Assembly (NCBI GenBank): GCA_026705445.1
Contig: JAPPAR010000011.1
Location: forward strand, 10,525-74,524
DNA: 64,000 nt
Source: Candidatus Dadabacteria bacterium
Lineage (GTDB): Bacteria > Desulfobacterota_D > UBA1144 > Nemesobacterales > Nemesobacteraceae
Direction of reading: 5' to 3'
The number at the start of each line of letters is the position of its first letter. Position 1 is the stretch's first letter. A model generated the notes under the pieces. It ran no database searches. It saw nothing but the letters and a program-made list of their open reading frames with translations, and was not told the DNA's origin. Shown piece by piece: positions 34,882 to 36,525 of the stretch. Position numbers and translations under genes: made by a program.

Positions 34882-36525
34882 TTGGGTGACTCCAGAACAA
34901 TGAAATCCAGCGACCAAAAATTGATAAATCCGCTTCTCCTCAAGCTACACACGCAACGAATTGAAGAGTTGCTTTCGGTGTTCCCAATGCTCCACGCAGT
35001 CGAAGGCACACAATTCATTTCACTCTGGAAGTATCTTGAAACGCGTCCACAACGATTTTTCTCCAAGGATGCCTTCCAAGTGTTCTTGGATAAACTAATC
35101 GAGCTGGACAGGGAACATAAAAATGCTCTTCTTCAAGTGTTGGATGAACACAATGCCCAGATTAACAACGCCTATAGACATGTCAACGAGATATGTGCGT
35201 TTGATTGGCACGATGAGCAAGTACGGAGTAGAGACGACTATGGACGGCTCATTTTCATCGATCAAGACATACACCCTGCTTATCTCCGGTTAGCTGAAGC
35301 TGTCTTTCGACCCTTGCTGCGAATCGTCGCATATTTTTCCCGATTGGACCGAGGAAAAAGCGTTGAAGATCTAGACTTATATCAGATTGTCCAAGAACTA
35401 GAATCTACAAACTTTCGAAGTTTACTATCTCCATATGATCATTTGATGCGAAACGGCATAGCCCATGGAGGAGTAACCTACTCGGCGGATAGCGTTATTT
35501 ATGAAGACAAGAAGAGCAACCGGCAAGAACTCGACAGCAATAGTATTATTCGCAAATTCGATGACTTATTGGATGTTTGCAATGGTCTCTTGCTAGCCTT
35601 CTCGATATTCATTTTTACTCGGAAAGACGACCGCTATAGGTTGCCGGTAAATTTGTTGATAGAGGAGTTAAGGGCGGAGACAAAAACACCGTATTGGGAA
35701 GTTGGCGGCTGCTTGCCATCGACACAAATCAATGGAACTCAGCTAATAATCTACGCCCGTATAAACACCATGGATGAGCAAAAGGTCTACTTCTCTCTTT
35801 TTCAAACGGCAATAATGGTCGAGAAGATTGCCCCGGGTTATGATCGCTACTTTTTCTCCCTTCGTTCTGAGAGACATTTACCTGGATTTGCGGCGTTTGA
35901 CGGTGGCAAACTAGCCGAGCATAGAGTGAATAATAGTCAACTAGAGCAATACAGCGATGTCCTAGAAGACAATCTTTTATTTTTCGTTCCGAAGTTACGT
36001 CTCCCGAGAATATGGAAAAAGCTGGAGACTCTATGGCTGTCCTATAAGATTCATAACCCATCGATAGCTTCTGATATTCGTCAACAACTTGGGTGGATCA
36101 ATGTAGCTGTCAGGAACACGGAAATACACCGGAATGCTTGGGGAGCTGTTCTGAACGCGGACGTAGTGGTCGCACGAGAAGTTGGCATCGTTGATCAGAG
36201 GCTCATTAAGCGGAGTTGCCGTAGAGTGGTAAAGAAGGCCCTCAAGGAAGCTAGACGAAAACTCTCTTTCCTTAACGTGTGTCGGTATTTACCGCTTGGC
36301 TTTTGTAGGATTTCTGTATATCAAAGGGATTACCGGGCCCGCAGGCTTTCAGGCTTCGGTCTGGGAACGGACCTAATTTGCACTGTTCAAGTGCAGCGCA
36401 TCAGACGCATCAGGTCGCCTGATATAGTGGGTGCGACGGTTGAGATTGCGGGCCGTTATAGAATAGCTTGGAATCGGAGCTGGTTGGAGGAAGTGGCCAG
36501 GTGTACAAACGATATGTCTTTATAA
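34882..36525 (+). CDS. HEPN-domain protein, Abi_2 (AbiD/AbiF)-like; candidate abortive-infection RNase
   Basis: LMRNGIAHGGVTY fits the HEPN R-N-x3-H motif and the R-N-x-x-A-H signature of Abi_2 proteins. 547 aa, AT-rich island context. Confidence 0.45.
   Translation: MGDSRTMKSSDQKLINPLLLKLHTQRIEELLSVFPMLHAVEGTQFISLWKYLETRPQRFFSKDAFQVFLDKLIELDREHKNALLQVLDEHNAQINNAYRHVNEICAFDWHDEQVRSRDDYGRLIFIDQDIHPAYLRLAEAVFRPLLRIVAYFSRLDRGKSVEDLDLYQIVQELESTNFRSLLSPYDHLMRNGIAHGGVTYSADSVIYEDKKSNRQELDSNSIIRKFDDLLDVCNGLLLAFSIFIFTRKDDRYRLPVNLLIEELRAETKTPYWEVGGCLPSTQINGTQLIIYARINTMDEQKVYFSLFQTAIMVEKIAPGYDRYFFSLRSERHLPGFAAFDGGKLAEHRVNNSQLEQYSDVLEDNLLFFVPKLRLPRIWKKLETLWLSYKIHNPSIASDIRQQLGWINVAVRNTEIHRNAWGAVLNADVVVAREVGIVDQRLIKRSCRRVVKKALKEARRKLSFLNVCRYLPLGFCRISVYQRDYRARRLSGFGLGTDLICTVQVQRIRRIRSPDIVGATVEIAGRYRIAWNRSWLEEVARCTNDMSL

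Follow-up and report, generated by a model that had tools for sequence, protein, structure and literature searches.

The window, the 64,000-nt stretch of Dadabacteria DNA analysed here, encodes a protein that we assign to a new family with a new domain architecture inside the well-known HEPN superfamily. An N-terminal helical region and a predicted HEPN core are followed by two alpha/beta modules spanning ~290 residues, and this C-terminal region is obligatory family-wide. On a modest balance of probability, we interpret the protein as a stand-alone effector with a conflict-related role, in which the HEPN domain would act as an RNase and the C-terminal half would provide regulation or substrate choice.

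Domain organisation and spread of the family

The ORF contains 547 codons from a TTG start (Table 1), and an alternative ATG at position 34900 gives a 541-aa product. The ATG is the more likely true start because homologues, including an 88%-identical copy (locus L011), begin MKS. Scans for promoters and terminators returned signals at chance level.

Table 1. Positions in the window of the gene, its predicted parts and the neighbours discussed in the text (residues in 547-aa numbering).
Feature	Position	Strand	Basis
HEPN-family gene	34882..36525	+	547-codon ORF, TTG start
N-terminal helical region, residues 11-118	34912..35235	+	AF2 model and conservation
HEPN core, residues 119-250	35236..35631	+	
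E139-x3-R143 in helix-2, second HEPN signature	35296..35310	+	conservation
Predicted catalytic motif R190-N191-G-I-A-H195	35449..35466	+	conservation and AF2 model
C-terminal module 1, residues 256-340	35647..35901	+	AF2 model, conservation
Helical linker, residues 341-403, lower conservation	35902..36090	+	AF2 model
Second conserved R-x4-H-R, residues 411-417	36112..36132	+	conservation, model
2008-aa giant protein	27577-33603	+	HNH, PIN, TPR and GreAB-C domain matches
HicB, 274 aa	33989-34813	+	PF05534 at 2e-12
Three-ORF block: 90-aa ORF, 124-aa ORF, HicA	36631-37517	+	

The original prediction rested on the segment LMRNGIAHGGVTY (residues 188-200), which was read as a HEPN R-x4-H motif. About 0.5-1 such motifs are expected by chance in 547 aa (an estimate from typical residue frequencies), and the protein has two, R190-H195 and R411-H416. 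Thus, it is conservation rather than the presence of R-x4-H that marks R190-H195 as non-random. Across 35 aligned family members, which range down to ~42% identity, R190, N191, H195 and G196 are invariant (35/35) and G197 is found in 34/35. The N-terminal region ahead of the HEPN core closes with the similarly conserved W109-H110-D111 (W and D in 35/35, H in 34/35).

HEPN domains are structurally defined (Anantharaman et al. 2013, PMC3710099), and are recognised by Rx4-6H with a polar residue (N/D/H) directly after the arginine and by an acidic residue conserved in helix-2, frequently within E-x3-[KR] (PMC3710099). Here N191 follows R190 directly, and E139 of helix-2 is retained in 34/35 members (position 143 is R or K in just 13/35). 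The AF2 model shows the expected four-helix core of two alpha-hairpins (~100-120 aa plus inserts), ordered as a long helix-2 (119-156), a helical insert (166-182), a short helix-3 (187-194), a three-stranded beta insert (198-218) and a long helix-4 (219-245). Helix-3 carries R190 to A194 at its end, H195 is the first residue past it, and the next long helix is helix-4. Given this placement, the motif sits in the expected hairpin position of the model rather than outside any helical hairpin, the outcome that had been named as counting against a HEPN domain. A Foldseek search of the PDB with the full-length model gave nothing at E<1e-3 and did not recover HEPN structures; its top matches superposed poorly on the C-terminal half. 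From the invariant R, N and H and the modelled fold, we are confident that the protein carries a genuine HEPN-type domain, as originally proposed.

The C-terminal half had been described as an Arg/Cys-rich addition to a fused or expanded protein. Its arginine enrichment is clear (11.0% over residues 256-547 and 17.8% over 430-547), and that of cysteine is only modest (2.1% and 4.2%). It is not a lineage-specific add-on: every intact copy across 561 sequence clusters retains it, and its conservation equals that of the HEPN core. Lacking are architectures made of the N-terminal half only, and the two candidates proved to be disrupted copies. One (L062, 6123-7148) carries a frameshift ~265 residues in and shows the motif variant RNGSAHGG; the other (L078, 3406-6008) is split after the motif by a 604-aa ORF resembling an IS transposase.

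Module 1 is modelled as beta-hairpin, helix and beta-hairpin, forming a two-layer alpha/beta sandwich with eight invariant positions. Beyond the linker lies the second conserved motif (R411 in 35/35, H416 in 34/35 and R417 in 33/35), which is not a HEPN helix because it is predicted to lie within a beta-strand. No internal duplication, either of the HEPN domain or of the C-terminal modules, was detected by hhalign, which aligned the R411-H416 and R190-H195 motifs over just 8 columns. The C-terminal half lacks both a specific structural relative and a nuclease-like structural match, and its modules have no CARF/SAVED match.

Searches of Pfam, PADLOC, NCBIfam, PHROGs and PDB sequences returned nothing relevant for the query, the 35 members (E<=10) or the family profile, and the PADLOC-DB v2 defence HMMs gave no family at E<=1. 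The protein matches no described HEPN profile and therefore represents a new family at the sequence level. A word-indexed search identified 275 relatives, all annotated as hypothetical and without Pfam domains, and an exhaustive HMMER profile search found the above 561 clusters (50% identity) at E<=1e-3, with 230 at E<=1e-30. Family members are ~510-560 aa long. The best 150 HMMER matches are all full-length proteins of this size or contig-truncated fragments, and thus we conclude that the architecture is constant. Members in RefSeq are labelled 'hypothetical protein' (WP_084032096.1, WP_141148944.1, WP_281184445.1, WP_224858446.1), and literature searches by topic and by member accession found no description of the family.

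The family is widely but patchily distributed, with 72 loci in 185,579 species-representative genomes. The 561 clusters cover more than 12 phyla of bacteria and three archaeal lineages. Bacterial hosts of the 72 loci include Thermodesulfobacteriota, Dadabacteria, Alphaproteobacteria, Planctomycetota, Chloroflexota, Gemmatimonadota, Acidobacteriota, Bacteroidota and Verrucomicrobiota, among others, and the archaeal ones are Methanococcoides, Methanofastidiosum and Methanosphaerula.

Genomic context, mobility and predicted role

The gene is always a lone gene without a conserved neighbour. When the 439 flanking ORFs of 59 loci were clustered, no neighbour family occurred in more than 6/59 loci, and the largest cluster, of ABC-type ATPases, was found in 6 loci at scattered positions. 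The settings are diverse. In Desulfonatronum lacustre the gene is downstream of a type I R-M operon, in Trichlorobacter lovleyi it lies within an integrase/relaxase island and adjoins a TIR protein, at locus L007 it comes after brnT, and in Martelella and at L008 it is found among housekeeping genes. The L011 copy is preceded by an MqsA-like HTH protein, a 602-aa AAA_21/SMC-type ATPase (AbiEii/OLD-like) and a 78-aa ORF. This set (7432-10004), flanked by two ABC-type ATPase-like ORFs, looks like a small inserted defence islet. A raw tally of the 149 neighbours within two genes, uncorrected for background, includes some R-M methylases, type IIG enzymes and OLD/AbiL/AAA_21 ATPases. These defence-type proteins are suggestive of a defence context.

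No partner that could serve as an antitoxin was identified. A small, close, same-strand ORF is present in only 14/59 loci, and none of these ORFs are related, so a hidden small protein antitoxin was not found. An upstream ncRNA antitoxin was also rejected: an Rfam scan of positions 33400-38000 gave no match at E<=1, the 59 loci share no upstream DNA beyond the gene start of close relatives, and the gap upstream of the gene is often <15 nt. With no separate protein or RNA antitoxin required, control would lie within the protein itself.

The GC content of the gene is below that of its flanks in 52/56 loci, with a mean difference of 10 points (Wilcoxon p ~1e-9); in Methanosphaerula the values are 0.31 for the gene and 0.60 for the flanks, and in Desulfonatronum they are 0.40 and 0.62. 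Family members were not detected among PLSDB plasmids or INPHARED phages. IMG/VR contains one relative with 32% identity (L082, 368-2026, of UViG_3300009517_000009). Its neighbours are a cI-like repressor (HTH_3 and Peptidase_S24), a 706-aa protein and an AAA_22 ATPase, in a Mu-like layout; the gene is 368 nt from the contig end, so whether it is prophage cargo or host flank is ambiguous. Taken together, the low GC, variable sites, scattered hosts, disrupted copies and absence from the phage and plasmid collections describe a horizontally moving, dispensable, self-contained gene.

This is probably a self-contained toxin or defence gene, and the defence part of that role is one that we infer. 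The biological role is likely conflict-related, as abortive-infection-type or toxin-type growth arrest. By analogy with HEPN biology (PMC3710099, PMC12373285), we predict a metal-independent endoribonuclease in which H195 would cut RNA together with R190 and N191, with the active site presumably formed by dimerisation of two HEPN domains. The Arg-rich C-terminal modules may keep the nuclease inactive until a trigger has been detected, for example a component of a phage or mobile element; alternatively, they may select or bind the RNA substrate. Once activated, the enzyme would cleave cellular or invader RNA, leading to growth arrest and an abortive-infection-type outcome.

A more specific proposal, which we regard as tentative and rather doubtful, is that the family is a pan-prokaryotic fused toxin-sensor module. 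The HEPN domain would be autoinhibited by two C-terminal modules that directly sense the invader, and the module carrying R411-x4-H416-R417 would serve in RNA capture or as a second catalytic centre. The conceptual likeness is to CapRel(SJ46), a fused toxin-antitoxin defence protein with an N-terminal toxin, a C-terminal regulator/sensor and no separate antitoxin, in which toxin and regulatory region are also joined in one chain. The toxin fold and chemistry differ, however, in that the toxin of CapRel(SJ46) is a RelA/SpoT-like tRNA pyrophosphokinase rather than a HEPN domain, and autoinhibition and direct sensing are hypothesised for the present family.

The protein could instead be a HEPN-fold RNase with a non-defence role, for instance in RNA processing or in RNA turnover induced by stress, or its gene could be a selfish one of the addiction type. 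At several loci the surroundings are housekeeping genes and neither defence nor mobile genes are close by, the gene is essentially absent from phages and plasmids, and HEPN domains also serve in RNA processing (Las1, Ire1/RNase L; PMC3710099). We consider this unlikely, given the rarity and patchiness of the gene (72/185,579 species representatives), its strong GC deviation from the host, its variable insertion sites and its disrupted copies. Less probable still is a non-catalytic HEPN domain that binds ligands or nucleic acids, as in nucleotidyltransferase-associated HEPN proteins and sacsin, with activity located elsewhere, for example in the R411/H416/R417 module. Non-catalytic HEPN domains typically lose Rx4-6H (PMC3710099), whereas this family keeps R, N and H without exception and also retains E139, and the lack of a nuclease-like structural match for the C-terminal half also argues against this option.

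The hicAB neighbours and the resemblance to Abi_2

In the window, the gene had been placed between two HicAB modules, and a toxin-rich cassette was suggested. The upstream module holds up (Table 1). The encoded HicB has HicB and RHH domains in its first ~115 residues, then a ~160-aa C-terminal extension without a family match, and a terminator-like hairpin (34765-34786) lies inside the 3' end of its gene. It is preceded by an 84-aa ORF (33731-33985) with no Pfam match but 31% identity to the HicA encoded downstream (E 9e-5). The second module, downstream of the gene, is less secure: its HicA (37284-37517) reaches 26.0 bits, just below the Pfam cut-off of 27, and the 124-aa ORF ahead of it has a faint HicB-like segment (E 0.036).

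Adjacency to hicAB is confined to the window and to two close relatives, L009 (92% identical) and L010 (91%). In the 88%-identical L011 the genes to either side are already different, even L009 and L010 lack the downstream hicBA/TnpB block, and neither hicA nor hicB adjoins the gene in any of ~55 other loci. The same two relatives are the only ones in which the 2008-aa protein is syntenic with the gene. Membership in a multi-gene toxin cassette with hicAB and/or this HNH/TPR-GreAB-C-PIN protein would fit the order giant protein, hicA-like ORF, hicB and target gene in all three copies, on the same strand and with short gaps throughout. Synteny limited to near-identical relatives makes it very improbable, and comparative genomics thus rejects either cassette as a conserved association.

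The 2008-aa protein is predicted to be a giant conflict-system protein. It has an N-terminal HNH nuclease (with matches to PADLOC PDC-M68A and to CBASS-effector-like HNH), along with HTH_upstream_double_PIN, PIN-TPR-GreABC and permuted GreAB-C domains. The block at 33-38 kb has 43-47% GC, compared to about 51-58% on either side (roughly 53% in the surrounding DNA). This segment (33000-38000) extends from hicAB through the HEPN gene and hicBA into the start of tnpB, and is consistent with a horizontally acquired islet. The TnpB/IS605 OrfB-type protein (37896-39062, + strand) has OrfB_IS605 and a Cas12f1-like TNB domain, and no TnpA was seen close by. Two adjoining STAND-like ATPases (40042-44000, - strand), of 928 aa (AAA_16 and TPR) and 403 aa (ATPase_2/AAA_16), may form a further conflict or signalling module beside the island. 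A 251-aa ORF (25793-26548, - strand) encodes a reverse-transcriptase domain (RVT_1, 1.8e-20) and may be a group II intron, retron or defence-associated RT fragment; GC is uneven in the adjoining 24-27 kb region.

The other proposal, that the protein is an expanded member of Abi_2 (AbiD/AbiF), was prompted by its R-N-x-x-A-H signature. The likeness itself is real, RNGIAH here and RNQCAH in AbiF of C. difficile (PMC12373285), and the protein is indeed longer than Abi_2 members, originally put at ~200 aa of extra length, and exceeds the 287-aa AbiF of Clostridioides phage phiC2 by ~250 aa. Such a signature is common to many HEPN families, and is therefore not diagnostic of Abi_2. As a positive control, phiC2 AbiF (L083:27175-28035) matches PF07751 at 1.1e-48 and the solved AbiF structure 8vz6 at 8e-30, while PF07751 matches 0/35 members of the new family at E<=10. 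When the family alignment was compared by hhalign with an alignment of 25 Abi_2 sequences, the probability was 1.6% and only 17 columns around the motif were aligned (RNGIAHGGVtY against RNxCAHyGRiY). Thus, similarity to Abi_2 does not extend past the short motif, which had been named in advance as grounds for abandoning the assignment.

AbiD/AbiF (PF07751; 8vz6) and the new family share the HEPN superfamily, the local R-N-x-x-A-H-x-G-x-x-Y and an occurrence as single protein-coding genes in variable, often defence-rich contexts. The abiF upstream ncRNA antitoxin (Rfam RF03085) is an Abi_2 feature (PMC13064643, PMC12373285). An Abi_2 toxin with an extra C-terminal domain, held by an upstream ncRNA in a type III TA-like manner, would account for the shared motif (PMC12373285 and the local hhalign match) and for the HEPN type and frequent proximity to defence genes of both, and is scarcely credible given the phiC2 control and the hhalign result.

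Comparison with other HEPN systems and significance

The MNT-HEPN (type VII) toxins (8xdj, 7ae2, 5yep; DUF86-like) are single domains of ~130 aa that are neutralised by an adjacent MNT. In contrast, the present protein runs to ~540 aa, carries additional N- and C-terminal regions and a beta insert after the motif, and has neither detectable sequence similarity to these toxins nor an adjacent MNT gene. An MNT gene does not flank the window copy and is not a recurrent neighbour elsewhere, and NTP_transf_2 is not among the families found in at least 2 of the 149 flanking proteins.

Also comparable are ApeA, AbiJ, RnlA/LsoA, PrrC/RloC and Csm6/Csx1, which are single-polypeptide HEPN defence effectors with accessory domains. 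In proteins of the ApeA, AbiJ, RnlA, PrrC and Csm6 type the HEPN domain is C-terminal and joined to a known partner such as CARF, ABC ATPase or AbiJ-NTD (domain order in part from PMC3710099), whereas here the HEPN domain is N-terminal and is paired with two uncharacterised alpha/beta modules. PADLOC gave no match of the protein to any of these systems. Csm6/Csx1-type (CARF/SAVED-HEPN) effectors combine a CARF/SAVED sensor with a CRISPR/CBASS context, a combination that the family does not have, and this assignment was rejected.

HEPN RNases form the effector end of Cas13, Csm6, RnlA, AbiF and many TA and abortive-infection systems, and new HEPN architectures have been a repeated source of new tools and modes of sensing. 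Discoveries of further HEPN families and of candidate defence systems made up of one gene are common. The family described here comprises 561 clusters from many phyla and some archaea, and has no annotation in Pfam, NCBIfam, PADLOC or PHROGs. Being HEPN yet not Abi_2, it shows how a short catalytic motif can mislead assignment. A recognisable catalytic domain is joined to ~290 strongly conserved residues without a structural assignment and, if this is a defence gene, it would offer a compact one-gene system that can be tested easily.
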